64,000 nt of DNA, from positions 34,807-98,806 of the forward strand of contig JAVCCL010000032.1 in NCBI GenBank assembly GCA_030765505.1, given 5' to 3'. Below, in pieces: positions 1,226 to 20,896 of the stretch (position 1 is the first letter of the stretch; every line of letters begins with the position of its first letter). The notes beneath the pieces are model-generated. The model had not been told where the DNA came from. It was given only the letters and a program-made list of their open reading frames with translations, and ran no database searches. Origin of the DNA: Candidatus Kaelpia imicola (GTDB taxonomy: Bacteria; Omnitrophota; Gorgyraeia; Kaelpiales; Kaelpiaceae). The position numbers and the translations under genes were made by a program.

Positions 1226-4200
1226 ATGAGACAGATTAAAAGGAAAGCAAGTTTTAAAGTGCTTTCAATAATTTTTCTAGAATTTTTTCTCCTATCTCAA
1301 ATAGGCTGGGCTTCAGTTTCACAAGAGATGCTCTCTTCTTATGATCCTGGATTTACAGCTTCTTGTCCAATCAATACGAATAGTTCTTTCTCAATTAATA
1401 TTCCTCTCGAATATGAAGATAGTACTTTCTTTGCTTCTAGCGAGTCGACACTTGAAGAAATAAATGGTTTTACAATAATTCAATCTGATAGTAGTAATAA
1501 TATTCAACTTATAAACCAATATTTTTATGTCGAAATAGTTATTGCAGATAGTGTACCGCCGCTACAAGGAGTTGAGGATATACGTAATTATCTGGAAAAT
1601 CCAGTAGGAGTGCAGGAAATTCTTTTGGAAAGAATTAATGTAGATGAAGAAAAAGATGTTTTTTGTTATAGCTTTAAAGATGTTATTAATTCAGAAAATT
1701 TAGCAATAGAGAGGATTGAATTGGATGAGTCTTCAGGTCAAGTAAGCGTAGAAGGCGGTATAGTAATAGATTATTTAGAGGTTTCATGTGAGCTTGATAA
1801 CGGAGAATTAAACTATCCAGATACAGTAAATTCAATTTCTTCAGTGGAAAATTTTATTCAAATAGTTGGAACTACATATATGGAAGAAAATTATCCAGAG
1901 TTAGCCTCGCAATTGAATTTTTTCATGCATTTTGTTTTAAATAGTTATTTTAATAATGCTACAGGTAGTTGGCCTAAGTCTATTTCATCTCTCGAAGTTA
2001 GTTTTCCAGGTAATGATTACATTATAAGCTATGATAATCAGCATATGTCGATAAATTCTCTGGAAGAAGATTCAACAGATATGGATGTAACTATAAACAG
2101 TGTAGTTGAAATATCTCGAGGTCTCAATCTACCTGCCGAGTATACGCTGTCTTTTAGCAAAGACAGTGAAGCTTTACAGTCATTAAGTCATAAAATAACA
2201 TATTTCCCCGAAAGTGCGTTAGAAAATCCTTGGGAATCAATAGAGATTAGAGATTGCCAGACACAAAAATTGTTGTATAAGGCAGAGAGAGAGTTAAGCG
2301 AAGATGGTTTGCAGATATTGTCTTTTTCTGAAACGCAGTATGATTCTAATGAGGAGATAGTCTCTCAGAGGAAAACAGAGAGATTAGATGATGGTTCAAG
2401 CAGATATGTTCTTGCTGACAAATGGAATAAAATTATAATTTATTATGATGTTACAGAGAAAATAAGAAGAGAAGAGCATTATGTAATGAATCCAGCCGAA
2501 GGTGAATATCAACTAGATTACATGAAAAATGTTTCAGATGTTAATTCTTGGCAGAATGCCTCTGATGAAGTATTTCAACATTACTTTTATATAGTCGGAA
2601 ATGTATGGAGTTTTTCTGATCAAAATCTTGGATTAGGTGATATAACTTTAAGTCAACGCATAGACCAGGTTTTAATTAGTGCAGTAGCGTCTTCTGAAAC
2701 AGGCGAGGGGATTTATTACAACATGCTGGATATTGGTGGATACCATGGTGAATATTCCTCGTCCATATATCAAAGATTATATGAATATAGGGCATGTTTA
2801 ACAAGCGACGGTTCTGATTTAAAAGCATTGTTTGGTCAGGAATTACAGCGATATTTACCTCTTCGTCAAATCGAAACTGCGGATGGTTTAGTAGATGTAT
2901 GGGGGATTGTAGCATTTGAATCTGATAAAATTGATTTAGATAAAGCTAATATAAGAGATGCAATTTTAAATACTTCTTTAGAAAGCAAGGTTATGGATTT
3001 ATATGACATGATAATGGAAGAGAATGGTTCTTGGTTTACTCAATTGACGTCTGAGCAGAAAAGAGATGTATTTAGAAAATTTTTGGAGCCGTTAAAAATA
3101 GATGAAGAAGGTTTAATAAGTGCAGTCTTTGAAAGTGTTGATACTGAATACGAAACTTTTGTTGAAATTTTTGATAGATACTTTATGAAAGAAGTAGATA
3201 TTCCAAAATACGACGAGAGTGATTTTGCAGATAAATTTTTGTATATCCTTGGAGGGGCTAAAAGCTCTGATTCTCTCAACTCTTTCGTGGATACAATATG
3301 TTCTTATCAATCAAACATTCAAGCTTTTCCCGGGGATATTAGAATAGAAGAATTTTATATGGGTAAAGATAATTTTTATAATGACAGAGAATTGGCTTTT
3401 GTTGATGTTTATCAGGAGACAGCAGGAGAAGAGCGTAGATTATTGCAGCGCTGGGCGGGTGCTAATATTTATAAATTTACGGAATGGGATCAAGAAGGGA
3501 GTCCTATAGCTTGCGAGTTAGACGGGGAATTTATTTCTTTTCCTCACGAGGATATATTAAAAGCAGGCTCCCCTGGTGATTGGGAAGAGATGAATCAGGC
3601 GCCTAATAGTTTGTTTCCGATGATTCCCAAGGTTCCAGAGTGGATGTGTCATGGGAAGGTCGGTCTTACTCTTATAAAAAAGAGATATGCTACTGATGGG
3701 CTTAATGTTGCAGCTACCCCTGATTTTGAATCTTTCAGACCTGTTGAATTTGGTGATACATTTAACGAAAGCTATTTTACGCAAGATGAATTTTTGTCTA
3801 GAGATCCAGAGATACTTAAAACATTTTTAAATTTAAATACCGTAACCAGAGGTTTAATTGAAAAGTTTAATATTTCAATTTCAGAATTAGAAGGTAAGCC
3901 ACTCAGTGTTGTTTTTTACGAGATTAATCAAACTATAGCTGATAGATTAGGATTTTCCAATGAGATGAGAGAAGAGCAATTAGAACATCTTAGTGTAGTT
4001 AGGCGTGAATATTATCTTAGAGAAGTGCTTGGTATTACCGAAGAGTCTAAAATCGCTGCCTGTCTCTATGAAAGTAATGAAGTTATTGCTGAGGTCTTTA
4101 GAATGGAATCTATTGGATATAGTGAAGAGCAGATACAAGGTTTTTTGGCGATAGATGAATCTCTTGATGGAATAGCAAGCGAACTGGTTTATATGAGTAG

Positions 4201-5800
4201 GGCAGAGATCGAGGTAAACCTTGCAGAGTTTGGATATAGCTCTGAACAGGTAGATGAATTTTTTGCTATAGAAGATGCATGTCGGTTGGAATCGGAAAGT
4301 GTTTTGCAGCTTCTTAAAGAAGTATATGGAGATGATATTGAACAAATTATGATTACTGCTTTTGAAGATTCTATAAAAGGAACTCCGATGCAAGCATTGA
4401 TAGATAGTGAGGAGTATAGAGAATTTAAAGAAGAGGTTGGATTGATGGGGGTGATAACAAGTGATCCTGAAATAGCTAAAATAGTTTTAAATCGGCTATT
4501 GTTATATTACGATGATTATGAAGATATTGATTTAGATGAATTAATAACAGATTTTAATTCTATTGCAAGTAGAAATTCTGATGTAATAAAAGATTATTTA
4601 GACGTTGTATTAATTGGTACAGAAGATTTCAACGACTGGACCGATAAAGAAATAAGAAGTGCATTATCTTGTGCGTATTTAAAGACAAGAAGAGGGGAAG
4701 AGAGCGCAGACGATGCTTATGAACGGAGAGCAGATTTATTTAGCGCTTGGATGGAAGCAAATAGAGATGTAGGTTATCCTGCTTTTGGAGTAGCTCCGAC
4801 TCAGGATATAATGATTGCTCCTTATTCTGATCGTATGAACTGGGCTCAATTTGCAGGTTGGTCTTTAACGGGTTTAAGTGCTGCTTTTCTTGTTGCTTCG
4901 GGCATAGGTGCAATTTCTGCAGTTACTCTTCCTGTATGGTTAACTCCAATAGTTGCAAATGCAGGTCTTGCGAAAGTTGCTGCTTTTACTGTTGCAGGAA
5001 CATTGTTAACTGGAGTAATGACTGGATCATGGGCGCAAGCCCCATATGGAGGTATTCAGGGTTTTCTTCTAGGGATAACTTATCAAATTTTGCCTAGCGT
5101 TATAAGTGGAACATTAAGATTAGGACGTCCCTTGCTTGCAAAAATACTGGGAAGTACTGTTAGAGCGTCCAATTTCCTTTTGGAATCTGCTAGCCAAAGA
5201 GCGCTTCTAATACCTCTTATAAAGACAGCTACTGGAACAGCTTTTAAAGGACATAAAGTATTGACTTTAGCAGAACGTTTTGGTTGGTTTATTGGTAGTT
5301 ACAAGTTTATTTCTCAGCCTATAGCGGAAGGAGTGGCGAATATTGCTATGAGGAGAAAAGGTTTGGATCCTCAAGATTCTCAGAATCTTTGGATTCATGA
5401 ATTGGCTAATATAGGGGCATTATTAATTATGCCGTTATTTATACCTGGGTCTTGGGCGATGAATACAAGTGTTATATATAGCGGTGGCGAATATCAAGCA
5501 ATCAGACCGTTTACAACAGCTAATAACGTATCTCATTATATTGGAAATTGGACGACGCGGGGCAGTTTTCGTAGCTATGGTAGTTCTCAATTATCGGGGG
5601 CTATTGCTATGCCTTTGGGAGTACAAAGATTGCTTGAAGAATTAGATCAAGATGTAACAGGGATAGAGCTAGGGGTTGCATTAGATAGTTATGGTGTGGA
5701 AAATGAGGAATGGCGAGCAACTTTAAATACCGATTTTGATTCTTGGAAGATGGTATATGAAATTTTATCTGAACTAGGGGTGCTTGAAGATGGAGAATAA
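1226..5800 (+). CDS. giant membrane-anchored acidic protein (1524 aa), N-terminal TM/signal, C-terminal Gly/Ala-rich hydrophobic module
   Basis: Uninterrupted 4.6-kb ORF with RBS AAGGAG 9 nt upstream. N-terminal hydrophobic helix (VLSIIFLEFFLLSQIGWASV), a long D/E-rich region, and a C-terminal ~200-aa Gly/Ala-rich multi-helix hydrophobic segment (GWSLTGLSAAFLVASGIGAISAVTLPVWL...). Its stop overlaps the start of the next giant gene. No recognisable catalytic motif. Confidence 0.75.
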   Translation: MRQIKRKASFKVLSIIFLEFFLLSQIGWASVSQEMLSSYDPGFTASCPINTNSSFSINIPLEYEDSTFFASSESTLEEINGFTIIQSDSSNNIQLINQYFYVEIVIADSVPPLQGVEDIRNYLENPVGVQEILLERINVDEEKDVFCYSFKDVINSENLAIERIELDESSGQVSVEGGIVIDYLEVSCELDNGELNYPDTVNSISSVENFIQIVGTTYMEENYPELASQLNFFMHFVLNSYFNNATGSWPKSISSLEVSFPGNDYIISYDNQHMSINSLEEDSTDMDVTINSVVEISRGLNLPAEYTLSFSKDSEALQSLSHKITYFPESALENPWESIEIRDCQTQKLLYKAERELSEDGLQILSFSETQYDSNEEIVSQRKTERLDDGSSRYVLADKWNKIIIYYDVTEKIRREEHYVMNPAEGEYQLDYMKNVSDVNSWQNASDEVFQHYFYIVGNVWSFSDQNLGLGDITLSQRIDQVLISAVASSETGEGIYYNMLDIGGYHGEYSSSIYQRLYEYRACLTSDGSDLKALFGQELQRYLPLRQIETADGLVDVWGIVAFESDKIDLDKANIRDAILNTSLESKVMDLYDMIMEENGSWFTQLTSEQKRDVFRKFLEPLKIDEEGLISAVFESVDTEYETFVEIFDRYFMKEVDIPKYDESDFADKFLYILGGAKSSDSLNSFVDTICSYQSNIQAFPGDIRIEEFYMGKDNFYNDRELAFVDVYQETAGEERRLLQRWAGANIYKFTEWDQEGSPIACELDGEFISFPHEDILKAGSPGDWEEMNQAPNSLFPMIPKVPEWMCHGKVGLTLIKKRYATDGLNVAATPDFESFRPVEFGDTFNESYFTQDEFLSRDPEILKTFLNLNTVTRGLIEKFNISISELEGKPLSVVFYEINQTIADRLGFSNEMREEQLEHLSVVRREYYLREVLGITEESKIAACLYESNEVIAEVFRMESIGYSEEQIQGFLAIDESLDGIASELVYMSRAEIEVNLAEFGYSSEQVDEFFAIEDACRLESESVLQLLKEVYGDDIEQIMITAFEDSIKGTPMQALIDSEEYREFKEEVGLMGVITSDPEIAKIVLNRLLLYYDDYEDIDLDELITDFNSIASRNSDVIKDYLDVVLIGTEDFNDWTDKEIRSALSCAYLKTRRGEESADDAYERRADLFSAWMEANRDVGYPAFGVAPTQDIMIAPYSDRMNWAQFAGWSLTGLSAAFLVASGIGAISAVTLPVWLTPIVANAGLAKVAAFTVAGTLLTGVMTGSWAQAPYGGIQGFLLGITYQILPSVISGTLRLGRPLLAKILGSTVRASNFLLESASQRALLIPLIKTATGTAFKGHKVLTLAERFGWFIGSYKFISQPIAEGVANIAMRRKGLDPQDSQNLWIHELANIGALLIMPLFIPGSWAMNTSVIYSGGEYQAIRPFTTANNVSHYIGNWTTRGSFRSYGSSQLSGAIAMPLGVQRLLEELDQDVTGIELGVALDSYGVENEEWRATLNTDFDSWKMVYEILSELGVLEDGE

Positions 5801-8800
5801 AGGCCAAAAAAAATATTCTAAAAATAAATACTTTGCAAAAGTATTTAAGGATTGGTCTTTACAAGATTTTATAAAGAAGATAATACTTGTTTTAATTAGT
5901 GAGATATTTCTTGTAACACAGTTATGTTATGGAATAGAAATAACTACCGAACCAGATCAGCTTCCTCCTTTTTTCGGGGATGCTACTGACTTTGCTTTTC
6001 CACTCGATGAAACAAGTCTTTTCCCAGTTAGTCAGACTATTTCAGGTGCACCAAGCCAAGTAGGTACTCTTATATTTGATGCCGGCGATAATCAAATTGT
6101 GCCGGTTAATGTTGAAGAAATAACAGATGGAACATATCAGATTACTCTTCCTTTTGGTTCGGAAGAAGATCCTGTTTTTAACAATTTTCTTGTATCTGGA
6201 TATGAAGTTTATGAAAACGGATGGATACATGCTGATTCCTTGGCTTTAGTAGAAGAGGGTTCTTCATATATAACATATCGCAATTTAGACATGAAACCTG
6301 GTGAGTCTGGAGACGGAGAGAGTAGTGGTTTTATTATCTGGAATGCAGAATTTGAAGTCATTGACGGTACATTCGGGGTTATTGAAGAGGGTGAACTTAC
6401 ACAGTTTAGTTCTTATCAAACAAAGATACTTAAAAAAACAATGTTTAACAGCTATGATCCAGATGGACAAAGATATTTTGAGGGTGACAGAACTGATGAT
6501 GGCGGGCTTATTACAAGCCCTGAAGATTTCAGTGGGATATTTACTGATGATTTCAGGGAAAGCTATTTTAAATATCAGCGTGATTTGCTGAGAGGTCATA
6601 TTGATCCCAGTTTATTTGGTGAAATAGAACCGATTGCGTTTCGGATAAATTATGACGACCAGAAAGATCAGTATGATTTTGAAGCAAATATTAATATTAA
6701 TATTTATTCAATGCTTGCTTATTCTGGTTTTGTTTCTTTTAGTTCTGAATCAAATTTAAATAACATAACCTCTACGGCTATAATAATAAATGAAGAAGTT
6801 GATACAGGATTAGATGAAGAAGCTACTGCAATAATAGATGAAGAAGGAGGGGCAGTTTTAAGCGATGAAATAGAATATTTAAATTTTGGTGCTGGCCTTA
6901 AAGTGGAAGAAAGGTGGGGCATGGTCAATACTTTTACGACGCTTTTAAATAAAAATCTTATTGATGAGGACGGGAACGTTAAAATAAGAGTTAAAGTAGG
7001 TGATGGAACAGAGGGTGTAGAGTTTAGTGTTCCTTTTGTTTACTTGTTAGGAGATGTCCCTCCACCAAAAGAATACTCTCGACCCTCATATAGTGTTATA
7101 GACGATAAATATGACGACCTTACATATTTAATAATGCAGGATATTTGGGATGCGCTTAGATATGACATTATAAGAAAAGAACAAGATATGCAGGAACTAG
7201 ACGATATAATCCATTTACCTGGGTATCTTAAAGACTTAGCTTATTGGCATTTTAGGTATGATGAGACAGGTGATGAGACAGGTGAGGTAAAGAAAGGTTA
7301 TTATCTAGGTGATTTTGGAAGTGTTAGATTTGATGAGAATAGTTCCGAAGTTGTTTTTAATCTTGATTTTACTGAAGAAGAAAAAGAAGCGTGGTTGGGT
7401 TGGGTTTCTCCTGATTTGTATTTTTATGATCGAGACCCGAGTAAATTAACAGCGGCTTTAAATGAATATATTGGAGCAGCATTAGATCTCCCAGAAAAAC
7501 CTCAAGGTGTTATTGCAACGATTGAGCAGGTGCGGGAACAGGCTCTGAATGGAGAATATTATACGATTATTCTTGGCGAAAGATTAGATGATGTTACGAC
7601 TACCTTAGAGAGTTTTACAGTCGATGAGTTATATGAAAATAAAGAGGATTTATATTTTAAAAATCCATTCAGACAGCATGCCTTAAAATATCTACTGGAT
7701 AATGATTTGATAGATACATTAGGAAATGTTGCGGTATCTATTAATATTGACCAGAGTTCTCCTCAAGATGTAGTAGAAATAGTGCTTCCATATCAATACT
7801 TTATTTTATTTGCAGATCCATTACGAGAATCTCTTCCATTAGAATGGAGAGATGATGGAGGATCTCATGACGAAGCTTGTGATGTTTTTTATGATATTCT
7901 AGCAAATGTATCCGGGCGATTAGGTGCTAGAGGGAGAGTAGATATTGATTATGAAAGCAAAAGTTTAATTTATACAGGAAATGAAATAGAGTCTATTATA
8001 TCAACCCCAGAGATGGAACTTGAAATTGGTAGTCTTGTTGTAATATTAGCTGAGAGAGTCACTGTAGATAAAATGAATGATATAGAAATAATTCATAAGC
8101 TTCCAGAAGATGTCGAGTTAGATATGAATGCTATGTTTTTAGACTTAGCTAATGGAATGCTTGACGACCATAGCGTAGAAGAAGATGGTGAACTTGTAGA
8201 AGTTAAAGGACTAAATTCATTGCTTTATGATTTGGATGTTTTAATCGAAGAGGGTGATTGGTCAGAGACAGCTGTAGTAATCGATAAAATATCAGCCATT
8301 AGTCTAGATTTTAAAGAGAAGATGGAGTATATACGGGTCTGTGATTACTACGTTGATCGCTTAACATATATCCATGGAGGGAGTCGGAATGCAAAAATAT
8401 TATGGTGTATAAATATTTCACCCAACTCAGATGGAATAGAAAGCGATATTTATCCATTCATTGAAACACTGCAAAAGTTCTCCCAAGGTAATTGGGCAGA
8501 GGGCATGGAGATCTATAATAACCATGCTCAAGAGTATGACGATAGTCGTCACTTTATAACAGGTTTATTTGGTGAGCTTGATACTGAGATCTCAAGTCAG
8601 ATGAAGAAAGTAGCTGTTCGTGTAGGAATAGCTCGTGCGGCAACCTTTGTCATTTTAAGTATTGCATCTGCAAAACTGGGATTTCTTGCAGGTCGATTCT
8701 TAGGCGCTTGGTCTAAGACCCTTCCATTTATACAGAAGATTCAGGCGTCAACAAGTATCGGTGCACAGATGGCAAAAGGTACTTGGGCAGGATTTAAGGC

Positions 8801-11800
8801 GGTTACCAGGATTTTAGGTGTCTATGTAGATAATGCGACTGAAGCAGCACTAATGTGGCAGTCGTTGCTGCCATTTATGGGTAAAGCCGGTAGGATGCTG
8901 GGGAGTTTAAGTCCGAATTTATTTGGTATGGCGTTACGTTATGGAGTTAACGCTTCTATAGTAGGTACAGGTGCAGCAATGGGTTATCTAAAACCAGGGA
9001 GGAATTTATGGTCTTTCATGAATAATCCTGTTGGATTCTTAATCCCTGCGTCTGAACGTCTAGGTAATTTAGGAGATGTTTTTGAATTTATATCTGTTGC
9101 ATTGGATGGATTTAACTTTGCAAGGACTGGAAGATGGCCTACAAGATCTCCTATGCTAGATTTTTGTCGTAAATATGAGATCCATGTCCCACTTATTACA
9201 CAGATTCAAGAAAAGATAGAAGGCTTTAAAACAGAAGTAGCTTTGCAAAATGTGCTGAATAAATTTAAGACGGCTCGGGCAACTATACATCAGGCAAATA
9301 TAGTTTTTAGCGCAGGACTTTTTGCCGGCTTAGATGTAACTGCTCTAGAAGTGGAATCTTCTTCTACTTCAAGTAGCGTTGAGAGTCAGAGTGAATCAGA
9401 CGAAGAGCCCACTGCACAGTTTGTGTATTTTGCTGATTTAGAGAAGTTTCCGAATGAGGAGAGTTTTCTTGATTATATAAAAGGTTTTAAAGTACGAGTT
9501 AGTGGTGAAGTCAGAAACTTCTGGGATGTGTTATATGAAAAGAATGTTGACCAAAGTAAGACATTAACAGAAGCAGGATTTTTAAAACTTAAATATGAAT
9601 TGATTGGATTAACAGTAGAAGAATTACAAAGATTTCAGGAACTGAAAGGAGACGAAGCCGAAGAATTAATAAGTGCTGGAAATATGCCATTCTTTACTCA
9701 ATTTTACCGTGCTTTATCTGAAAATTTGAATAATCTAACAGATAGGACAGATGTTTCTTTAGCTCAGGCGTTGGCTAAAGTCTATACGGTTATGCACAAT
9801 ACCCTTAGCGTAGGAACAGGCATCCCTTTAAATCTAACATTCCCGCAACTGCTTGCAGCATACTTTGTATGTGAGGGATACAATGTAAGAAAAACTGATA
9901 CAGGTAAAATACGTTCAATTATAGATAAAGTCTTTAATGTATCTACAGGTGAAGGCAAAACCTATATAGAACCTGCAGCTGCAGCAGCGCTTGCATTGAT
10001 GAGGAAAGACGGGGAAAAAGCATTTGATACGGTGCTTATTGCATTCTCTTCTAATATTCTTTGTAAAAGAGATTTCGAGGGTAAAACTGATAACGACAGA
10101 GGTGTTAATATCGATATGCAGGAGTTTTATAGCGCCTTGGGCTTAAGAGTAGCCCATTTAGAGGAACCCCGTGATAATACAGTTAAATCATTTGTAGATT
10201 ACAAACGTAATTTACTAGAAAGGTTGAGAGGGCAGCATAAGCCAGACATTGTTTATGCACCTATTTCAAATATAATATTTCACATTGCTTATAAACTGGC
10301 TGATGAGGATTATTCAGAATTTGATAATTTAGACCGAGTAGCTGTAATTCTTGATGAAGTTGATGCTACTGCCTTAGAACAAGCACAGAGTCCATTTATA
10401 ATAAGCAGGGGTGGCGCAGAAACATACCGCGTTGGTACGCCAGAGGGAGATTTCTTTGAAGCTGTAGGTAGATATATTCGCGGATTGGATTTATTCGGCA
10501 AGTTTGGCTTGTGGGAATCATCACCTGAGGTAGATATTGATGCTTTGAAACAGGAAATCCAAGAATCTAGGGATATTAGCGATGAGGATAGAGAAAATCT
10601 GATAGAAGAATTAAGTGCAGGGAATAGTCCTTTGCAGGTATATCGTGACTGGAAGTTAAAAGTATCGTCTGAGTTAAGAGAGCAGATTCCAGAGATATTA
10701 GCTGACAATATTGCAGATTTAAATTACTCTGGCTTAATTGAGGCGCTGGGATCAGCCGAGAGTATAATACAAAATTATAAAGATAAGTACATTATAGAGT
10801 TTGAAAATGGTGTTCCAAGAGTAATTATTGTAAGTGAATTTAGTCACGAAGCACAGCCAGGTAAAAAATGGCAGAATTGGATACACCAAATGATAGAATC
10901 TTATGTAGAAGGGGTTCCTGTGAGTACGACTAGCTATACTTCAGGTTCAGTTATTATGTATGAAATACTTGCAAAAATGGGTTATGTTGTAGGGCTTTCA
11001 GGCACTGTGGATGTATTTCAAAAAGTTTGGCAAGATCTTCTTAATGCCGCAGTTATGACTTTTCCTGAAGCTTTAAATGATTTAGAGCAGTTTCGAAAGA
11101 CAACTCCTGTATATGGTTATACAAATTATGATCGTAGTCAACAGGATATGATTGGAAGCCTTATAGAGCATGCTATGCACGGCGAATCTGTTGTATTGGC
11201 AACATTAAAATATGAACAGAAGTGTGATGCTGTTTTGACATATTTTAGAGATCAGGGTGCCCAAATAGAAGAAGAAGCTATAGAGGAAACAGAGGGTAAG
11301 ATACGCTATAAGGTAACTTTGTCTACGGGAGATGTTCTGTATGTACAGAAATATGGAGCTCGGGAAGATTTAGACCCAGTGTTAAAAGGTATGATTGAAC
11401 AATTAGCAGGAGAAATGGGATTAATTACAATTGGTTCTCCGATTTTTGGTAGGGGAATTGACATTGATACATCACAAAGAATTTCTGAAGATTCTACTGA
11501 TAATAACGCGATATCTAAAAATGAATTGATTCAGGAAGTACTGGAGAATACATTAAGTGGTCAAGCTGTTGTATTTGCTTCAGAAAAGCATGAGGATGCA
11601 CTGAATGAATTCCTATCTTATTTAGCATTAGATGATATAGAAGCTGAGTCTGTAGAAGGCTTAGAAGGTGCTAGAAAAATTAGAATAGAGTATGAAGGTA
11701 AAGAAGTAGTATTGTTTAGTTACGGCACTAAAGAAGGTGATTTATCCCCAGAGGTAAAAGCAAAAATTCAAGCAGAGATAGACCAAGCTAATGAAATTAA

Positions 11801-12992
11801 TGGAGAGGGAGGGAGATTTATTATTTTCTGTTCACCAAATATTGGACAAGAGTTTAATGTTGGCGACTCAGATCAAGTATTGTATGAAATGAAAGGAGAG
11901 TGGGGTTCAATATATCGCAATCTTCATGTTGTTGCTGATGGATTAATGGCATTATGGCTTACACAGCAGATTATTGGAAGAGCAAAACGTGGAGGGCGAC
12001 CAGGGACTGCTGCAGTATTTTTCTCTACCGATTTTGTCAATGATCCAATTTGGCAGCAATATCAAAAATTGTTCATAGCTCATCCGGAATGGTGGGAAAC
12101 AATTGAATCAAGTGTTGTAAGATTGTCTGATTCAATTGGTGACGCAAGGATGAATGAATTTAGTTTTTTAGATGCACGTATTCAAGAAATTCAAGGTATT
12201 CATGTTCAATCAGTTCTTGGAACTTTGATGAATGTGATGGAGCAATACAAACCACTATATGAATTTCAGGTTGATTTTATACGGGGATTGGGTGAAAGAA
12301 TTAATGGCAATCTAACCCAAGAACAACAGCAGAAAATTCAGGAAATTCAGGAAATTCAAGAATCTAAGAATTTTACTGCCGAAGATAAAGAAGATTTAAT
12401 AGGGCAAATACATGCAAGGAATAATCCACATCAAGTGTTTAAAGAATTTAGAATATTTGAAACGCTAGGTGGAATAACAGTCGATAACTTAAAAGGCTGG
12501 ATTCAAAATGACTCTCTCTATTGTAGCGAAGAAACAAAAATTCAATTAATACAAACTTTAGAAAATGAGGATAATTTAATTTCTCCGCAACTGGTTTATT
12601 TAAGGTGGAGAATCTTGGATTCACCGCTATTATCAATAAATCAAAAATCCAACATTGAAGAGCTGTATACATTATTTGCAAACTCTGCAAGAAGTATTGG
12701 AAACAATAATTTGCCGGAGATTATTAATCAGTGTTTAGATGATGTAGGAAATGGAGACTTAAAAGCAATAATGTTAAAATATCTTACTCCTTCGGATCCT
12801 AATTCGCAAAATTCTCAAAGAGAGACAGCAACGAGTAGAGTTGTTCCTACATATAAATCAATGGTGTTGAATAATTTTGGTGGCGAACAAGCTGCTGTTC
12901 ATTATGGAATTAAGAGTGATTTTAATGACTGGCTCTTAGAAGAAGCAGCTGATATATATGAAATTTTAGTTATTTTGGATTTGGTGAACTGA
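5784..12992 (+). CDS. giant multidomain protein (2402 aa) with embedded SecA-like DEAD-box translocase motor
   Basis: 7.2-kb ORF; TTG at 5784 or, more likely, ATG at 5790 overlaps the upstream stop. It has an N-terminal TM helix ([17 protein letters not shown]), a ~900-aa acidic region, a central Gly-rich hydrophobic module ([28 protein letters not shown]...) and a poly-Ser/acidic linker. A SecA-like core follows. Its NBD1 motifs are STGEGKTY (Walker A), [17 protein letters not shown] and [26 protein letters not shown] (Walker B/DEVD). NBD2 matches are LSGTVD (compare MTGTAA), [11 protein letters not shown] (compare NMAGRGTDI) and [18 protein letters not shown] (compare [18 protein letters not shown]). 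Each was aligned by eye to the genuine SecA at 51090-53963. Confidence 0.8.
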   Translation: [2402 protein letters not shown]

Positions 12993-13011
12993 TATTAAAG
13001 TAATATTTGTA

Positions 13012-15936
13012 GTGTTATGCATTTTCACTGTGCTGGTAAGTCCGGGTTGGGCAGATAATATCTCTGGTTTTAAACAAATTATTTCGGAAAGACAAAACTG
13101 GAACTATATATATAATCAGATTATTGTTGGGTTTAAACATAATAGTAGCAATAAAGAGATAGAATCTTTTATTGAAGAGTATGGGTGTGAGCTGATGGCT
13201 CCGATTGATGAGTTTAGGGTTTACGCTTTAGTCTTACCTCGAGGAGTTTATTATAGCGAAGTGAAAAGAAGCTTTCTAAATGATAAAAGAGTAAGATATG
13301 TTTTACCCAGTTACTATATGCATGCGCAAAGCATGTCTGACTTAGAAGGCGTAGTAAAAAGAGCACGAGATGAAAACGAGAGTAGTTTAAATGAAATAGG
13401 ATTTTTACAAGCACAAGAGTATATGCAATTGTACAGTTCACTATTGCCTGAAAGTGGCGGTGTTGTATTTGCTCTTCTTGATAGCTCTGGTCTTCATCCA
13501 GAATTGATTCAACAGTTGAATGATGCAGGAATATATCGCAATGGAGTTTGTTTCCAAAGGAGTGTTGATAATAGTGTAAATGTGGTTAACAATATTGAAG
13601 AATATACAAATGGCCATGGTACTCAAGTTGCTACATTACTCAGCACTTTAGGAGAAGGTTCTGAAATTATGCACATACAGTTCGATGGTGGATTAGGAAC
13701 ATTTATCGAGGGGATTAAATATGCTATCAGAGAGACTAGAGATAATAAAGAGCGATTGATTATAAATTCTAGTATGAGCATTTCTTTAGAATCTTTTAGT
13801 TATGATACAATGAAGTTTTTATTAAGAGATTATTATTTAGCTCAATCAATTGAAGAAGCAAGAATCGATGGTCAGGATGATAAAGCAATATATGATAGCT
13901 ATATTGATTATCGTAATGAGGCTCGAATCAAATCTTATGGTATTGTTGACGAGATTTTTACAATGGTTGATTCTGGAATAATTAATAATTTTCAGAATTG
14001 GGATGAAAGTGATTGGGCAATTGTTAGAGAGAAGTTTTCTTTGTTTGACGAAGAGATAAGTTTACTTAAATATGCTGAACATGTTGCAAGACGCGATTTC
14101 CAGTATTTTGTAAAAAGTCCTCTTTATGAAGATTTTGAAGAATTTTCTCAACATGCAATTATTGTTTCTGCAGCTGGTAATTGTAATGATTCAGGCATGG
14201 CTTTACCTTCGAGTTATCCTGGAGTAATTGGGGTTGGGGCAAGCTATAATGATAATATTGCAAGTTATTCTCGCTATGGCAATGCGGTAGATTTATATGC
14301 TCCAGGAGGGTATGCCTATGGAGATGTTTGGACTTACGACATTCAGGACGGTAGTTTAATTGAAACTAAATCTAAGAGAGGAACATCCCTTGCAGCACCT
14401 TTTGTTACTGCAATGGTTGGCTTAATTTGGAATGAAAATCCAGATTTAACCCCAGCAGAAATGAGTAATATTATTATTGCAAGTTCTTGTAATATATTTG
14501 ATAGTAATTTGGAGATTTATTTTAAACAAATAGATGGGCAGCAAGCAGCTATTCTTGCTTGCGCATATTCTTCTATAAAAGATGTCATAGCATTAATTGA
14601 TGATTATACTTCCGATGAATTTGATTTATTGGAACAGATAAATCAAAATTTAATTTTTAGTCAAAAATTGATTTCAGAACAAGTTGAAAATAGGCTATTA
14701 AACGATATAGATCTTTTTATTTCGGGGGTGCTTACAGCGAAAGAGCTTGAGGTGAATTTTCTCACTCAGCTATGGAATTTGGAGTCAGATGTTGGCATAC
14801 GGGTAGCATCGGGATTAGCTATAAATTATCTTCAGGATGATAGAATTTTAAAATCTGTGCTGGAAAAAAGTATTTCTGGCACTTCGACAGATATAGTACA
14901 GAAAATGTTAGATATTGTAAGCAATGAGGATAATAATTTTGATATTTTTAAAATAGAGCATGTTTTTAAGTCGTATGTAGTATTGAGCGACTTATATCAA
15001 GATTTAAAAGATTCAACCATTTCCCAAAGTTCTTTTATGCAAAGTGTGGAATTAATTTTTGGTATGCAAAATAAAATGTTCGAGAAATATATTCCTCAAT
15101 TTGTGAGTATTATTAATAGATTTATAAATGCTGAAATAGATTCAAACCAAGCTCAGCAAATGGTGTGTAATATAGCGTGGGATGTATGTACATCATTAGG
15201 GGATGAAGATTCTAAAATAGCTATAGCATTATATGTTGATAGCTTAGATGATGTGGAGTTTTTAAAGAATCTTCTTCAGCATCAGTTTCCACAATTAGAC
15301 TCAGGAATAATGGATGTTATTATTCAAGAGTCTTTATTTGAATGTAGAGATACAGACTCTTTAACGTTGCATGTATTTGATGTAGCAAATACATTAAACT
15401 ACTTAAATGAAATGTTTACTGCTATTGAGAAATTTGATTTAGAGTGGAATAATGAAATAGATTATTCGGTAGATTATTTAAAGCTAAGTGATTTGGGTAA
15501 TTGGGAAGACTGGAGTAAATTTTTAGACCAAAATATTCAGCGGAAAGAGTACATGGAAAACTTAGAAGTCTATCAAGATGTAGAATTTTTTTATACAGGT
15601 TTAGTAGAAAATTTATGTTCAATTTTTTTGGAACAAAAAATAATATCTTCAGAGTTTCAGGATGCAATTAATGCTCATATTTGGGATTTTGTAAATGGAG
15701 ATATAGATATTATTGCTGCTCAAGGAAATATTTTGGATAGCATTGAACAGGAAGCAGAATTACCTCAAATTTTATTAGGTACAAGTATTATACGTAGCAT
15801 TAGGTGGGATGAAGTGGATAATATTAGCGTTCCAACGATAGAAACAAACACCTCTCTTACTGTTCCAGGAGTAGATACAGCTGTAATTGATCAGCAGTTT
15901 GGAAATATTGAATTTGATTTTAATCAATTTTTGTAA
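13012..15936 (+). CDS. subtilisin-like serine peptidase (S8 family) with ~500-aa C-terminal extension
   Basis: GTG start. Short N-terminal signal-like segment (LCIFTVLVSPGWA). Asp region VVFALLDSSG, His motif NGHGTQVATLL and Ser motif KRGTSLAAPFVTAM form a subtilase catalytic triad in canonical order. A long extension of unknown function follows. Confidence 0.75.
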   Translation: MLCIFTVLVSPGWADNISGFKQIISERQNWNYIYNQIIVGFKHNSSNKEIESFIEEYGCELMAPIDEFRVYALVLPRGVYYSEVKRSFLNDKRVRYVLPSYYMHAQSMSDLEGVVKRARDENESSLNEIGFLQAQEYMQLYSSLLPESGGVVFALLDSSGLHPELIQQLNDAGIYRNGVCFQRSVDNSVNVVNNIEEYTNGHGTQVATLLSTLGEGSEIMHIQFDGGLGTFIEGIKYAIRETRDNKERLIINSSMSISLESFSYDTMKFLLRDYYLAQSIEEARIDGQDDKAIYDSYIDYRNEARIKSYGIVDEIFTMVDSGIINNFQNWDESDWAIVREKFSLFDEEISLLKYAEHVARRDFQYFVKSPLYEDFEEFSQHAIIVSAAGNCNDSGMALPSSYPGVIGVGASYNDNIASYSRYGNAVDLYAPGGYAYGDVWTYDIQDGSLIETKSKRGTSLAAPFVTAMVGLIWNENPDLTPAEMSNIIIASSCNIFDSNLEIYFKQIDGQQAAILACAYSSIKDVIALIDDYTSDEFDLLEQINQNLIFSQKLISEQVENRLLNDIDLFISGVLTAKELEVNFLTQLWNLESDVGIRVASGLAINYLQDDRILKSVLEKSISGTSTDIVQKMLDIVSNEDNNFDIFKIEHVFKSYVVLSDLYQDLKDSTISQSSFMQSVELIFGMQNKMFEKYIPQFVSIINRFINAEIDSNQAQQMVCNIAWDVCTSLGDEDSKIAIALYVDSLDDVEFLKNLLQHQFPQLDSGIMDVIIQESLFECRDTDSLTLHVFDVANTLNYLNEMFTAIEKFDLEWNNEIDYSVDYLKLSDLGNWEDWSKFLDQNIQRKEYMENLEVYQDVEFFYTGLVENLCSIFLEQKIISSEFQDAINAHIWDFVNGDIDIIAAQGNILDSIEQEAELPQILLGTSIIRSIRWDEVDNISVPTIETNTSLTVPGVDTAVIDQQFGNIEFDFNQFL

Positions 15937-15950
15937 TTTAATTAATATGT

Positions 15951-17489
15951 ATGAAAGTATTGAGTAAAAGAAATATTATTTATTACGTAGGTTGTTTTTT
16001 AAGTATTTCCTTATTGTTTTGTTGCTTTTTTTTATCATATTCAGAAGGTAATGAGTTTAGTCAAGATAAATTAATCTCAGCTGTTTTGATTTTGACAGAA
16101 CAATGGGGTAGCTTGCTAGACAAAGAGCAACTAATAGAAGATATTGAAAAACTAACACCTTTAAAGGCGAAGGCTTCTAAAGAAAGTTTTATTGTAAATA
16201 TTGTCAGAGCTGTGCGGAAACAGGGAGTTTTTTTAGAAGCGTTTGCTTTAGAGTCTAAAGATATAACGAAACTTAAAGAAAATAAAACAGCGTTTATATC
16301 TTTACTCAAAAATGGAGATTTATGTTATGTTGTTAAAAATATAGAGATTAAAAATAATAAAGCTGTATTTAGTTGTATTTTGCCCGATAGAAAGGAAATT
16401 TTTATAGATGAACGTGATTTTTTTTCTTGTTGGGAAGGTATGGTTATTTCAAAACCGCTTGTTAATATTAAAGCAAAAAGATTACTGAATAAGGAGGGGG
16501 ATAATAAATTTGTTGCTCTTTATTTTTATCATTCAGGTGAAGATTTTAACTTATTGCGTAAAGTTTTAGAAAAATTAAAAGAAGAGGCGGAAAGGACAAA
16601 TAAGAAACTTATTTACATTGATGAATTAGGCTTAATTCCAGAAAGGTCTATTGAATCTTATATGAAGGTAAATCAAATTGGAGAAAAAGAGGCTTTTGAG
16701 CTAATTAAGAAGATGTTAAATGAAGATATATCTAATGTTGGAAAAGGAGTTGCTATTTTAGGTGAAACCAATCCATTCTATAGACAGCTTTATCAATATT
16801 TAGCAAAGAATAAGATTGAATCATACATGGAAGACTTGCGATATGATGCATGGAAAAAGATAGTTGTTTTTGACAGCATGGAATATTATAGCAAGGCTAT
16901 CAATTACTTTTTTTTCAACAATATTGATAAGTATATTAAATCTATAGAAAGATTTATTGAGGGATATTGGGAGTATAATATTAAAAGAAGAGATGATGAT
17001 TTTAGAAGTCAAATAAAAAAGATAGTCGCAAAACACCCCAACTCTCTCATTTTTACAATTAGGGGAATTGGGCATTATGGAATGGATAACGATATTAACT
17101 TAGATAATTTAGCAGTGGAAACTTTAGTATTTGGTCGTGGAATATTTGAAGATAATCTGTTGCACTCTCAGATGTATTATATATTGCTTTCGAATGATAT
17201 TGTTATGAAAGAGAACGATAAAAAGCTTGCTATTCTTAAAACATACTTCGAAGATACTTTACGAGCATATTTTGTAAAAAAAGGATTAAATATTCCTGAG
17301 GCGACACAGTTAGTATGCAAAATATCAAAACGGTTGAAAGAAAAAAATGTTTTAAAATTTTCACAAGCAATTTACTATGCTGTGATTAAACAACCGGAGC
17401 AATTGCAGGAAATGTGGGGTTTTACTTACAATTGGTTTAAAAATCAAGGTTTTATCAAAGAGGAAGATCTTAAAGTATTCCAGAATTAA
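15951..17489 (+). CDS. membrane protein with degenerate papain/C39-like domain (catalytic Cys/His not conserved)
   Basis: N-terminal TM (IIYYVGCFLSISLLFCCFFLSY). The segment ...NGDLCYVVKNIEIKNNKAVFSCILPDRKEIFIDERDFFSCWEGMVISKP has the spacing of the C39 His-box (HfvVl...DP..G...F...W.G), but with D in place of His and no N-terminal Cys box. Low-confidence fold assignment. Confidence 0.55.
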   Translation: MKVLSKRNIIYYVGCFLSISLLFCCFFLSYSEGNEFSQDKLISAVLILTEQWGSLLDKEQLIEDIEKLTPLKAKASKESFIVNIVRAVRKQGVFLEAFALESKDITKLKENKTAFISLLKNGDLCYVVKNIEIKNNKAVFSCILPDRKEIFIDERDFFSCWEGMVISKPLVNIKAKRLLNKEGDNKFVALYFYHSGEDFNLLRKVLEKLKEEAERTNKKLIYIDELGLIPERSIESYMKVNQIGEKEAFELIKKMLNEDISNVGKGVAILGETNPFYRQLYQYLAKNKIESYMEDLRYDAWKKIVVFDSMEYYSKAINYFFFNNIDKYIKSIERFIEGYWEYNIKRRDDDFRSQIKKIVAKHPNSLIFTIRGIGHYGMDNDINLDNLAVETLVFGRGIFEDNLLHSQMYYILLSNDIVMKENDKKLAILKTYFEDTLRAYFVKKGLNIPEATQLVCKISKRLKEKNVLKFSQAIYYAVIKQPEQLQEMWGFTYNWFKNQGFIKEEDLKVFQN

Positions 17490-17586
17490 GCCTGCGATTA
17501 TTCGATTTGTTTTTATCCCGTCTTTTATATTTAAAAACATTCTATTTTTTCAATTTAATGGTATAATTACTTATACGGAGGAAGGG

Positions 17587-19296
17587 GTGAAAACAGAGAA
17601 GATTGTACTGTTTGTTCTAGTTTTTTTATCCCTGTTGCTTTTAAATATTTCATATGCAATAGAAGATTTAGAAAATTCAGGGATGTCTATATTAGGGGTA
17701 TATCCTGTCCAATGTCAATCTTATACCGTTTGGAACATTAACACATCTATCCAATCTTTTTCAATGCTTCCTATATTCAATTTAGAAGAGTTAAGCGATG
17801 ATTTCAAGTCCAACATAGATCTTAGTGGTGTATCTTTTTCTAATATAGAGGTTGAAAGTAATTTCAGTCCATATTGTTTTGATAATATTGTTGAATTGCC
17901 TGATATCGAAATAGAAGAGATTGTTGTTGAGTTACCTATTTCAGTAGAAGTTATAGATGAGGGAAATAAAGTATTTAAGCTTATCTTGGGCAATAAAGAG
18001 AGAAGCAGTATAAGTTTTATGGTTAAAGATGATGGTTTCTATGATTTAGAGGGTGAGTTTAAAGATACTTTCCTTGAGTTTGAATGGGCTAATGAACGCT
18101 TTAAAATAACTGTTTGTGATTCTGAAGAGAGCCTAGGGATATCAATTAAACCTTTAAATAGTGAGGTATACCCCAGGATATACTATAAGAAAGAGTTTAA
18201 TCTTGGGGTGTTTGATGGAGAGTACTCGTTGGGTTTTGTGAATCATAAACCTTATCTTGATATTATTTTAAAAGATTCAGATCAGGAGATTTTATCGGTT
18301 GATTTAGATCAAGATGAGCTATCTTTAAAGCTTAATATGAATCTTCCAATGTCTTTTGAGGATAGCATATCTTTAAGCTCCGACTCTTTTAAGATCGAAG
18401 ATGGAAATATTGATGGAAATATTGAAATTACATTAAATGAAGATGAGCAGAAGGTTGTGTTAAGAATAGGAGAGGGCGGTTACTTTGAGATAACTCAAAA
18501 TGGTAGCATGCGGGAGATAATAGATAAATTCTATACTGAGATTGCAGTTGATTTACAAAAGATGGTCGTACAGTTAGCAGAAGACGATGATAGTCTTGAC
18601 CCTAATATGACGGTAGATGATATAAGAGAGGTTTTATGGGAGGCAACAGGGGATGATTTAGAAGGTATGTTTGAAATAGTTCAGGATGCAAATGAGCAGA
18701 GACAGGGATTAGTAGTTCCAGGCGAAGTACGTCTATATTTGGATTTATCTAGTAATAATAGTCAAAAAAACGCTGAGCTTACATTTCCACTAATAGAGGA
18801 TAGCCTAGCCTTAAAGATGGGCTTAGAACCAGATGCTATTCAGATTAATTGTCTTGCTGATATATCAAGTATCTCAACTGCATCTACAGCTGAAGTTGGT
18901 TATAATAGTGATGGTCTAGTTCTATTTAAGCTTGCTGATTTAGCGGCGCTATCTTTAGTTAAGTTAGGAGTATCCCTTGATGGAAATATTGAATCTGTAG
19001 CTTTTAGAGTTAAAAATATCGAGGGTGATATCAACAGGGAAGGGTTTGAGGTAAGGAGTGTAGAAGATAGCTTACTTGGTTCATCAGCCTTGGATATTCT
19101 TCTTAGAGGATTGGAAGTTCAAGATAGTTCTACCAACTGGTGTTTTGGTTATGATTTTGAAGACGATTTATATCTAGGTTTTGGTATACCACTTAGTGAA
19201 GAAGTTAAGATTAGAGGCAGGATAAATAATCAAGGTTTAAGTTTTAAAACGCAGATATCTTTTATGGGGGGGGGGAATTCTAACAATAGAAAGTGA
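17587..19296 (+). CDS. secreted acidic hypothetical protein (569 aa)
   Basis: RBS GGAGGAAGGGG precedes a GTG start. Signal peptide IVLFVLVFLSLLLLNISYAIED. D/E-rich. Contains a G10 homopolymer 25 nt before the stop. Confidence 0.6.
   Translation: MKTEKIVLFVLVFLSLLLLNISYAIEDLENSGMSILGVYPVQCQSYTVWNINTSIQSFSMLPIFNLEELSDDFKSNIDLSGVSFSNIEVESNFSPYCFDNIVELPDIEIEEIVVELPISVEVIDEGNKVFKLILGNKERSSISFMVKDDGFYDLEGEFKDTFLEFEWANERFKITVCDSEESLGISIKPLNSEVYPRIYYKKEFNLGVFDGEYSLGFVNHKPYLDIILKDSDQEILSVDLDQDELSLKLNMNLPMSFEDSISLSSDSFKIEDGNIDGNIEITLNEDEQKVVLRIGEGGYFEITQNGSMREIIDKFYTEIAVDLQKMVVQLAEDDDSLDPNMTVDDIREVLWEATGDDLEGMFEIVQDANEQRQGLVVPGEVRLYLDLSSNNSQKNAELTFPLIEDSLALKMGLEPDAIQINCLADISSISTASTAEVGYNSDGLVLFKLADLAALSLVKLGVSLDGNIESVAFRVKNIEGDINREGFEVRSVEDSLLGSSALDILLRGLEVQDSSTNWCFGYDFEDDLYLGFGIPLSEEVKIRGRINNQGLSFKTQISFMGGGNSNNRK
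19266..19275 (+). repeat. G10 homopolymeric tract inside the 3' end of a CDS
   Basis: atgGGGGGGGGGGaattc, encoding MGGGNS near the C-terminus of the 17587-19296 gene. Extreme outlier for an AT-rich genome. Confidence 0.8.
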
Positions 19297-20894: not shown

Positions 20895-20896
20895 AT

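Follow-up and report, generated by a model that had tools for sequence, protein, structure and literature searches.

A compact, operon-split form of the membrane-anchored SecA-motor design in the Omnitrophota bacterium Candidatus Kaelpia imicola

Introduction

What does a bacterium that already encodes a complete SecA do with a second SecA-like motor built into a long and apparently exported protein? The question is raised by a gene at positions 5790-12992 (+ strand) of a 64,000-nucleotide (nt) stretch of contig JAVCCL010000032.1 (the window, meaning the whole stretch that was analysed) from the metagenome-assembled genome (MAG) of Candidatus Kaelpia imicola. The host was placed in the phylum Omnitrophota by exact-sequence matches of several window proteins together with taxonomy. 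The product of the gene, a 'hypothetical protein' of 2,400 residues (MDP8216683.1, P9L98_05140; the fusion protein below), had been picked out in a first-pass annotation of the letters alone, which took it for a second, fused SecA paralogue of an architecture not described before and named profile searches, realignment of the Walker motifs and a structural model as checks. The paralogue proved to be genuine, with non-degenerate Walker A and B motifs and motifs III, V and VI. The claim of novelty did not hold, as West-Roberts et al. (2023, bioRxiv 10.1101/2023.11.21.568195) and Nielsen & Lui (2026, bioRxiv 10.64898/2026.06.07.730766) already report the architecture in Omnitrophota.

Most giant proteins of this phylum carry divergent SecA_DEAD and SecA preprotein-binding domains (10.1101/2023.11.21.568195). 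In the Dockerin-type giants, as in the Archaeovorins, the SecA domains come after transmembrane anchors towards the C-terminal end and are without scaffold and wing; in phylogeny the giant-protein SecA domains form a long-branch clade of their own, to which the normal SecAs of those genomes do not belong (10.1101/2023.11.21.568195). It has been suggested that they may export the giant protein itself or accessory proteins, and the same giants hold C39 and S8 peptidase domains (10.1101/2023.11.21.568195). An analysis of 916 long Omnitrophota proteins, in which membrane or signal segments were present in 94%, found an architecture cluster with PF07517 and a C39 cluster (10.64898/2026.06.07.730766). 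The membrane-anchored SecA design is therefore already known in Omnitrophota giants, and what is new here is its compact, operon-split form.

Results

Evidence for a SecA-derived motor

Sequence comparisons confirmed that the fusion protein carries a SecA-type motor at residues ~1351-2079 (nt 9840-12026). With BLASTP, the motor matched the window's own SecA at E 2e-9, with 21% identity over 556 columns. The Pfam profile SecA_DEAD (PF07517) scored 33.3 bits against a gathering score of 24.6 (E 4.1e-8; amino acids (aa) 1379-1743 when counted from TTG 5784, see below), and the scores of two orthologous proteins introduced below were 57.6 bits (P0006) and 36.2 bits (P0045). The NCBIfam SecA model PRK12904 matched at E 7e-11, aa 1380-1905 aligning with model positions 94-501, at a score that missed the equivalog cut-off (41 vs 814 bits), as did that for TIGR00963 (35.5 vs 800 bits). 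When all PDB chains were searched with phmmer, the matches were exclusively SecA or SecA2 chains. A profile of the protein and two relatives, compared by hhalign with a profile of 15 SecAs, gave a probability of 99.94% and E 3.4e-37 over an alignment spanning the first nucleotide-binding domain (NBD1), the preprotein cross-linking domain (PPXD) and the second nucleotide-binding domain (NBD2). In Pfam, no other helicase family (DEAD, ResIII, Helicase_C) matched the fusion protein even at E <= 1, and the first ~85 residues of SecA had no match in it.

The fold prediction agreed with these matches. An AlphaFold2 (AF2) model of aa 1340-2160, computed from an alignment of 12 SecA-like sequences, had a predicted local distance difference test score (pLDDT) of 59.7, with 70-86 in both nucleotide-binding cores. 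The top 36 PDB structures retrieved with this model by Foldseek were without exception SecA or SecA2 (E 2e-15 to 3e-7); XPD, DinG, DdmD and MDA5 came next. Since the alignment behind the model was made of SecA-like sequences, this result is corroboration and not independent proof. An earlier AF2 run on 1,063 aa with a four-sequence alignment was set aside (pLDDT 38.7). Of the checks named in the first-pass annotation, the structural one came out in favour of SecA, and the profile search did so through SecA_DEAD, the only one of three profiles above its gathering score; SecA_PP_bind stayed below threshold and SecA_SW gave no match.

Anatomy of the motor and of the C-terminal region

Residues are numbered here from ATG 5790, and the numbers of the first-pass annotation equal ours plus 2. 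This ATG is the likely start codon rather than TTG 5784, which is the mechanical start of the open reading frame (ORF). AGGGG lies ~10 nt 5' of the ATG, and the NCBI entry (P0005) begins at the same codon and has 2,400 aa. The 2402-aa ORF reported before is thus present as described, save for its length and its likely start. The start overlaps the stop of the upstream gene by 11 nt.

The first part of NBD1 (9840-10406, + strand) comprises a Q-like motif, FPQLLAAY; the Walker A motif STGEGKT (9939-9965; VSTGEGKTY at aa 1384-1392); motif Ia, AFSSNILCKRD; and the Walker B motif LDEVD...SPFIIS (10338-10406; aa 1517-1539). Its second part (10902-11165, + strand) holds motif III, GLSGTVD (10992-11012). 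In NBD2 (11166-12026, + strand) we located motif V, GSPIFGRGIDI, and motif VI, QQIIGRAKRGGRPG, at 11964-12026, which includes IGRAKRGGRPG (aa 2059-2079). Every motif block listed in the first-pass annotation was found in the sequence of ORF 5790-12992. In the alignment of 12 sequences, the NBD1 columns Q14, G48, G50, K51, T52, D183, E184 and D186 and the motif III columns G396 and T400 are invariant, and the motif V and VI columns R549, G550, D552, Q721, G724, R725 and R728 are nearly so; the fusion protein has the consensus residue at the Q, Walker A (G-x-GKT), Walker B (D-E-x-D), III (G..T), V (R-G-x-D) and VI (Q..GR..R.G) columns. The realigned Walker motifs are intact and are kept in both orthologues, where GEGKT of this protein corresponds to GQGKT or GQGKS and DEVD to DECD or DEAD. 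Judged from this alignment, all catalytic residues of the motor are intact.

The two parts of NBD1 are separated, at the position of the PPXD, by an insert at aa 1540-1704 (10407-10901, + strand). The first two-thirds of the insert are helical, have no similarity to SecA and stand in place of the N-terminal 'bulb' of the PPXD, and the AF2 pLDDT is <50 across most of the insert. The end, VIIVSEFSHEAQPGKKWQNWIHQMIES (10821-10901), is SecA-like. It gave the best local match to solved SecAs in the PDB phmmer search (SecA residues ~352-438) and is the best-conserved stretch within the compact family formed with the two orthologues. The SecA_PP_bind profile (PF01043) reached 13.2 bits against a cut-off of 23.5 (E 0.14) and covered profile positions 67-110 only. 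An insert of ~170 aa had been noted at the PPXD position; it is there, and only its end is PPXD-like.

Self-alignment uncovered a tandem half-duplication within NBD2, in which aa ~1793-1898 match aa ~1919-2030 (z = 13.1 vs shuffles). The first copy (~11166-11489) retains GRGIDI of motif V. The second (~11544-11882), with the degenerate NIGQEFNV, is located between motifs V and VI, the site of a variable insert in SecAs. The half-duplication is absent from P0045 and so is lineage-specific.

The hhalign match to the SecA profile stops after motif VI. In Pfam, neither the helical scaffold and wing (PF07516/SecA_SW) at E <= 1 nor the SEC-C zinc motif (PF02810) found a match; the C-terminus is not Cys-rich, and the SEC-C motif is present in the window's real SecA. 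The C-terminal region (12027-12989, + strand) of ~320 aa is all-helical, in both AF2 runs at low confidence, and has no match in Pfam, NCBIfam or PDB. Its last 321 aa compared alone with the SecA profile in hhalign gave a probability of 0.07% and E 0.68, and a short likeness to the scaffold region (RMNEFSF / RVESFNF) appeared in a single MAFFT alignment. The region ends in a hydrophobic tail, DFNDWLLEEAADIYEILVILDLVN (12918-12989), that is kept in P0045. The motor had been called complete. This stands for the ATPase core; the scaffold, the wing, the two-helix finger and the SEC-C zinc finger went undetected, and of the PPXD only the C-terminal part was recognised.

As an observation in its own right, a 36-aa repeat (QEIQESRDISDEDRENLIEELSAGNSPLQVYRDWKL and QEIQESKNFTAEDKEDLIGQIHARNNPHQVFKEFRI; window 10551-10658 and 12348-12455; z = 12 vs shuffles) has one copy in the PPXD-position insert and the other in the C-terminal helical region, and is absent from P0045.

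Exported region, membrane module and predicted topology

A Lys-rich n-region at the N-terminus of the fusion protein is followed by a hydrophobic segment of 19 residues, IILVLISEIFLVTQLCYGI (5880-5936, + strand; Kyte-Doolittle peak 2.17), with a conserved Glu. The segment is probably a Sec signal peptide that is cleaved off (C-Y-G|I at -3/-1); the alternative is a signal anchor. The 'TM anchor' assumed earlier at this place thus gives way to something that looks more like a cleavable signal peptide, by the small residues at -3/-1, and such residues recur in other N-termini of the same operon (G-W-A|S, S-Y-A|I). The segment also has an E-x-F-L-x-x-Q pattern in common with the 1,524-aa protein encoded next to it and with P0045.

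The conserved Glu and Gln of these segments (IIFLEFFLLSQ, LISEIFLVTQ and TIIELFLFNQ; window 1256-1312, window 5880-5936 and aa 11-29 of P0045) are unusual for Sec signal peptides. The Glu prompted consideration of a prepilin-type (class III) signal, for which Gly at -1 and Glu at +5 come together in P0045 alone (G|ITIIE); both window proteins are without Gly at -1. Small residues at -3/-1, typical for signal peptidase I, occur in both window proteins and in P0045. Type II secretion genes have been described near Omnitrophota giant genes (West-Roberts et al. 2023, bioRxiv 10.1101/2023.11.21.568195).

Behind the signal segment lies an acidic region of ~890 aa (5937-8609, + strand), with 18-23 Asp and Glu against 2-11 Lys and Arg per 100 aa. 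It has no Pfam, NCBIfam or PDB match and is weakly conserved among the orthologues; we infer that it is extracytoplasmic. The hydrophobic Gly-rich module that comes next (8610-9353, + strand) begins with one conserved transmembrane helix (aa 941-974, 8610-8711; Kyte-Doolittle 1.84), after which there are conserved amphipathic segments rich in Gly, Ala and Ser (NPVGFL.P...LGNLGD..EF). The module is kept in P0006 and P0045, and in all three proteins a single segment is membrane-spanning by hydropathy. The net charges of the 40 aa on the N and C sides of the helix are -1/+6, -1/+4 and -3/+5 in the three proteins. Since this positive-inside bias is consistent in three orthologues, the motor is predicted to be cytoplasmic, as an ATPase needs to be.

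A Ser/acidic linker, ESSSTSSSVESQSESDEEPT (9354-9413, + strand), and then a helical region of ~140 aa join the membrane module to the motor. Composition and sequence bore out three features of the first-pass annotation (acidic region, Gly-rich hydrophobic module and Ser/acidic linker), and the order it gave, in which the exported acidic region, the membrane-spanning module and the linker all precede the motor, is upheld. At the equivalent site P0045 has two fn3-like units and a Ser/Thr linker. These beta-rich units (aa ~900-1080 of P0045, whose gene is at L004 2390-8233) match Pfam fn3 at a sub-threshold E of 9.5e-4.

Orthologues and authenticity of the fusion

The family is very small. We searched 1.84 billion representative proteins exhaustively with phmmer, using aa 1338-2400 as query, and obtained 31 matches at E <= 1e-3. 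Only three relatives had E <= 1e-8, namely P0006 and P0007/P0045, which belong to the protein's own family, and P0008, a domain of a long protein. P0008 is a partial Omnitrophota protein of 3,155 aa in which a less divergent SecA module is embedded. The remaining matches resemble ordinary SecAs, judged from the subset that was checked by Pfam or alignment. A word-indexed homologue search returned nothing with the motor alone and only P0006 and one SecA with the family profile, and two scans of GTDB genome contigs and one of JGI metagenome contigs gave no further relative.

P0006 is a partial protein from an independent Omnitrophota MAG at NCBI, and P0045 is a full-length protein of 1,947 aa on a 10-kb JGI metagenome contig. 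The same module order is thus found in three independent assemblies and, as the same fusion recurs in all three, it is not a chimera. Third-position G+C content (GC3) is 0.22-0.30 across the whole gene, the codon usage of the N-terminal part and the motor has a cosine of 0.96, and the cosine with the genome's real secA is 0.89-0.91; in codon usage the fusion gene is nearer to its operon neighbours. The 7.2-kb frame is unbroken in a genome of 35% G+C.

A crude neighbour-joining tree, in which P0008 stood in for the published giant-protein SecA domains, recovered the compact family (this protein, P0006 and P0045) as a clade in 100/100 bootstrap replicates. The family, P0008 and two further proteins, P0043 and P0044 (see Discussion), stood apart from the canonical SecAs, including that of Kaelpia itself, in 98/100. 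Grouping of the family with P0008 alone was found in 13/100, and long-branch attraction is possible.

The operon and the rest of the window

The gene is one of five tightly packed, same-strand genes at 1226-19296, downstream of a strong terminator at 1143-1174. The terminator is an intrinsic-terminator-like hairpin with a 14-bp stem followed by the T-rich TTTTATT, and lies between a gene for a 274-aa adhesin-like protein and the operon. The neighbours of the fusion are a long surface protein, an S8 protease, a C39-like protein and a protein without family match, followed by rpoN. The long surface protein and the subtilase, which the first-pass annotation had thought to be co-encoded with the fusion, are both in its operon.

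The first gene (1226-5800, + strand) encodes the 1,524-aa partner, with a signal sequence containing Glu, a long exported region, a multi-segment hydrophobic module at aa ~1217-1410 and the tail DFDSWKMVYEILSELGVLEDGE. Its layout is like that of the SecA fusion, minus the motor. Homology of the two long proteins was considered and is not established; the z-scores rise from 1.2 for the exported regions through 2.6 (membrane modules) and 2.9 (N-termini) to 4.4 for the C-tails. The similar C-tails (5732-5797 and 12918-12989) follow the pattern DF[DN]xW...(V/I)YEIL..L, and P0045 ends in EANGLYEFNLIMLMI; the similarity is modest (local alignment z = 4.4). The shared C-tail could be a docking or oligomerisation helix.

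The S8 subtilase (13012-15936, + strand) matches Peptidase_S8 at E 2.6e-22 and has an N-terminal prodomain of the fervidolysin type (Fervidolysin_NPro-like, E 1.9e-7), with the triad visible as D (ALLDSSG), H (HGT) and S (GTSLAAP). Its hydrophobic N-terminus is merely 14 residues long (MLCIFTVLVSPGWA|DN); there is a large insertion between the region of the oxyanion-hole Asn and the catalytic Ser, and the long C-terminal extension (~480 aa) is helical and without family match. The next gene (15951-17489, + strand) encodes a membrane-anchored protein of 512 aa with a weak C39-peptidase-like stretch that scores 20.9 bits over Peptidase_C39 profile positions 33-126, leaving the part with the catalytic Cys unmatched. 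The last (17587-19296, + strand) encodes a signal-peptide protein of 569 aa without family match in Pfam or NCBIfam. The operon is not kept around P0045, and the conserved unit is therefore the fusion protein itself.

The canonical housekeeping SecA (MDP8216720.1; 51090-53963, + strand) lies outside the operon, 38 kb from the fusion gene and between prfB and lnt. Previously annotated as canonical, it is complete: each of the five Pfam domains of SecA was matched, at E values down to 3e-130. Neither SecY2/Asp nor secretion-system or defence genes were recognised in the window with Pfam, NCBIfam and PADLOC. Membership of a defence system was rejected, PADLOC yielding a generic subtilase match only, and so was type VII secretion, the mycosin match of the S8 protease being 63 bits against a cut-off of 279.

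Several further features of the window were recorded. Convergent to the operon (19869-22243, - strand) are rpoN (sigma-54) and a gene for a 340-aa sigma-54 activator without receiver domain. As these adjoin the operon, a sigma-54 promoter was looked for ahead of it in 1175-1225 and was not found. Near-identical -24/-12-like elements, TGGTATAWATATTGCA, are present at 197-212 (within 197-223) and 55552-55567, both 5' of ORFs, and the relaxed -24/-12 pattern is enriched in the window (33 observed vs 18.3 +/- 4.3 expected), with no match immediately 5' of the operon. In the release-factor ORF (50247-51080) just 5' of the canonical secA, the PCRF profile matched only from position 64; its N-terminus would then be encoded in a different frame, as the programmed +1 frameshift of prfB would lead one to expect. 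A transposase/integrase-core gene, rve_3 (60288-61346, - strand), is found where the GC skew switches sign.

Discussion

Taken jointly, we consider it fairly probable that the fusion protein is a compact Omnitrophota membrane-anchored surface protein with a SecA-derived ATPase that moves polypeptide at the cytoplasmic face. That the motor acts in protein export or assembly is put forward more tentatively, since for this role on its own the sequence leaves slightly more room for doubt than for belief. The dedicated export or injection machine suggested in the first-pass annotation is likewise a hypothesis. We classify the locus as a compact, operon-split version of the membrane-anchored SecA-motor design already described for Omnitrophota giants. 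With the giant and long proteins it shares the phylum, a divergent SecA motor that has neither scaffold nor wing and follows a membrane anchor near the C-terminus, a normal SecA elsewhere in the genome, a largely unannotated exported protein, associated S8 and (here weakly) C39-like peptidase modules and the same proposed role in export. It differs in size, with 2,400 aa (1,947 in P0045) as compared with >30,000 (West-Roberts) or >=10,000 (Nielsen & Lui), and 10-147 kaa (thousand amino acids) overall. The S8 and C39-like modules are on separate genes of the operon and not on one chain, glycosyl-transferase, dockerin and other enzyme or repeat domains are missing, and the proteins form a distinct, very small sequence family, with the lineage-specific NBD2 half-duplication in this member.

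Canonical SecA (PDB 2FSF, 3DIN, 3JV2) has in common with this motor the NBD1/NBD2 arrangement, with motifs Q, I, Ia, II, III, V and VI, and a PPXD, here recognisable by its C-terminal part, within NBD1. The fusion protein differs in being without helical scaffold, two-helix finger, wing, C-terminal linker and SEC-C, in its covalent membrane anchorage where SecA is peripheral, in having only 21% of residues identical and in its partly duplicated NBD2. Wing-less SecA-derived motors with membrane segments or in export-like operons are also seen in P0037-40 and P0042 (~680 aa), P0043/P0044 and P0041. In those proteins, however, the motor comes first and the membrane part last, the taxa are others (judged by composition), and there are HlyD-like neighbours.

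The ~680-aa family has SecA_DEAD, PP_bind and P-loop_SecA, and no scaffold or wing. One member, P0040 (L003 8001-10034), is encoded in an operon with two or three membrane-fusion proteins of the HlyD/CzcB type, one of which has faint M50-protease and PqqD matches; the gene content suggests another non-canonical SecA-driven export system. P0040 with its HlyD-type neighbours fits the view that SecA-derived motors are reused in dedicated export. P0043 (L001/L002 8001-12074) and P0044 (~1,350 aa) have an N-terminal SecA-like motor and then a long multi-span hydrophobic region, and P0041 (1,733 aa) has a TIR domain and a SecA-like motor.

How might such a protein work? We propose that the acidic region, directed by the signal peptide, would be exported by the general Sec pathway until the conserved helix stops transfer and anchors it, by which the motor would be held permanently at the inner face of the membrane. 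SecA itself is targeted to the membrane and to SecY by its N-terminal lipid-binding helix and C-terminal parts. As these are the parts that are missing or replaced here, the covalent anchor is proposed as their substitute. The tethered motor would hydrolyse ATP and, like SecA, would grip and move unfolded polypeptide, and the strong conservation of the PPXD end suggests that clamping of polypeptide is retained. Since the motor is synthesised after the exported domain, it could not help its own chain co-translationally; the likely clients would be the surface proteins encoded with it in the five-gene operon or other copies of the fusion protein, and the S8 subtilase and the C39-like protein would process the exported products. 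Coupling to SecY is doubtful because the two-helix finger and scaffold are undetectable, and the conduit could be either SecYEG or the Gly-rich and hydrophobic modules of the fusion protein and its 1,524-aa partner.

Several findings weigh against this proposal. The two-helix finger and the scaffold that couple SecA to SecY went undetected by hhalign, so that SecA-like translocation is not assured, and the half-duplication of NBD2 might impair the ATPase. The topology is based on hydropathy and charge counts only, and the fn3-like units of P0045 lie in the segment predicted by charge to be cytoplasmic, which is unusual for such units. The AF2 model of the motor, from SecA-like input, is of moderate quality (pLDDT 59.7), and the grouping of the family with P0008 and P0043/P0044 in the tree may be long-branch attraction. 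As to the genes around the fusion, the operon is not conserved, P0045 having no S8 or C39 neighbour, and the C39 match of the 512-aa protein is below the Pfam cut-off (22 bits).

The absence of the SecY-coupling elements would also suit a trans-membrane mechanotransducer resembling MacB or FtsEX, in which no polypeptide is moved and ATP-driven motions reshape the exported region through the membrane module, thereby controlling adhesion or protease activation. Motor and exported region are indeed on one chain, joined by a conserved membrane module, and the exported region, having a signal peptide, can use the general Sec pathway unaided. However, the stretch best conserved in the family is the PPXD end (GKKWQNWIHQMIES), which is the most SecA-specific one, is related to a substrate clamp and suggests that polypeptide handling has been kept, and a linker of ~370 aa between membrane and motor, partly of low complexity, would be a poor transmitter of force. 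We therefore regard such a transducer as unlikely.

We think it quite unlikely, too, that the protein or a fragment released by the S8 and C39-like proteases is an effector that enters prey or host cells, where the ATPase would act in the target cytoplasm, for instance by disturbing the Sec translocon. Omnitrophota have been described as predatory or epibiotic, with the giants implicated in contact with prey (bioRxiv 10.1101/2023.11.21.568195), and SecA-like helicase-related domains are among the C-terminal domains of Amoebophilus effectors (PMC3482391), which offers an analogy. The fn3-like units beside the motor in P0045, the coupling of TIR to a SecA-like motor in P0041 and the co-encoded proteases would also suit an effector. 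That all three orthologues keep a transmembrane helix with the same charge bias, positive inside, argues instead for a resident membrane protein; moreover, no injection apparatus was seen in the window and no toxin-like domain was found, the generic subtilase match being all that PADLOC gave.

The remaining alternatives can be dealt with briefly. SecA belongs to superfamily 2, and XPD, DinG, DdmD and MDA5 follow the SecAs in the Foldseek ranking, but a nucleic-acid helicase or translocase of that superfamily, unconnected with protein transport, is highly improbable given the SecA-specific PPXD end, the SecA-only sequence matches in Pfam, NCBIfam and PDB (with DEAD, ResIII and Helicase_C silent at E <= 1) and the 36 best structural matches, all to SecA or SecA2. 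SecA2s are prone to losing portions of the wing or of the C-terminal domains, and like SecA2 (PDB 4UAQ, 6SXH) this motor is a second, specialised SecA paralogue beside the housekeeping one. There is a weak match to the NCBIfam secA2 model TIGR03714 (E 3e-10), and Foldseek retrieved SecA2 structures too. To read the motor as an accessory-Sec SecA2, or as a second canonical SecA, is nevertheless hard to credit, for the scores are far under the cut-offs (38.9 vs 930 bits for TIGR03714, 17.5 vs 725 bits for the other SecA2 equivalog, TIGR04221, and 41 vs 814 for SecA). Besides, SecA2 is soluble, keeps its scaffold and works with SecY2/Asp or SecYEG, whereas here scaffold and wing are lacking, the motor is covalently fused to a membrane protein and the operon contains no SecY2, Asp, glycosyltransferase or other accessory genes. 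Finally, an artefact, either a chimeric assembly of a secA fragment with an unrelated ORF or a decaying pseudogene, might be feared in a MAG but is scarcely conceivable when the same fusion is present in the independent assemblies of P0006 and P0045, GC3 and codon usage do not shift at the junction and are closer to those of the operon neighbours than to those of the genome's real secA, the motor is just 21% identical to that SecA, and the 7.2-kb frame is open with its catalytic motifs conserved.

Returning to the membrane-anchored motor that we favour, a bolder version of it, which we hold to be rather unlikely, would make the compact family (this protein, P0045 and P0006) a minimal, SecYEG-independent, SecA-derived device for export or assembly. 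The anchored motor would use its own Gly-rich module, here with the multi-span module of the partner, to move or mount large surface proteins, and the giant proteins would have been elaborated from such a core.

SecA-like domains are the only clue to the synthesis and export, in Omnitrophota, of proteins with tens of thousands of residues, and the giant genes are far too large for cloning or purification. Here the same elements are found in one gene of 7.2 kb and four neighbours, which provides a realistic entry to work on ATPase activity, topology and structure. The compact protein could reveal whether a membrane-tethered SecA motor works without the scaffold and the two-helix finger.

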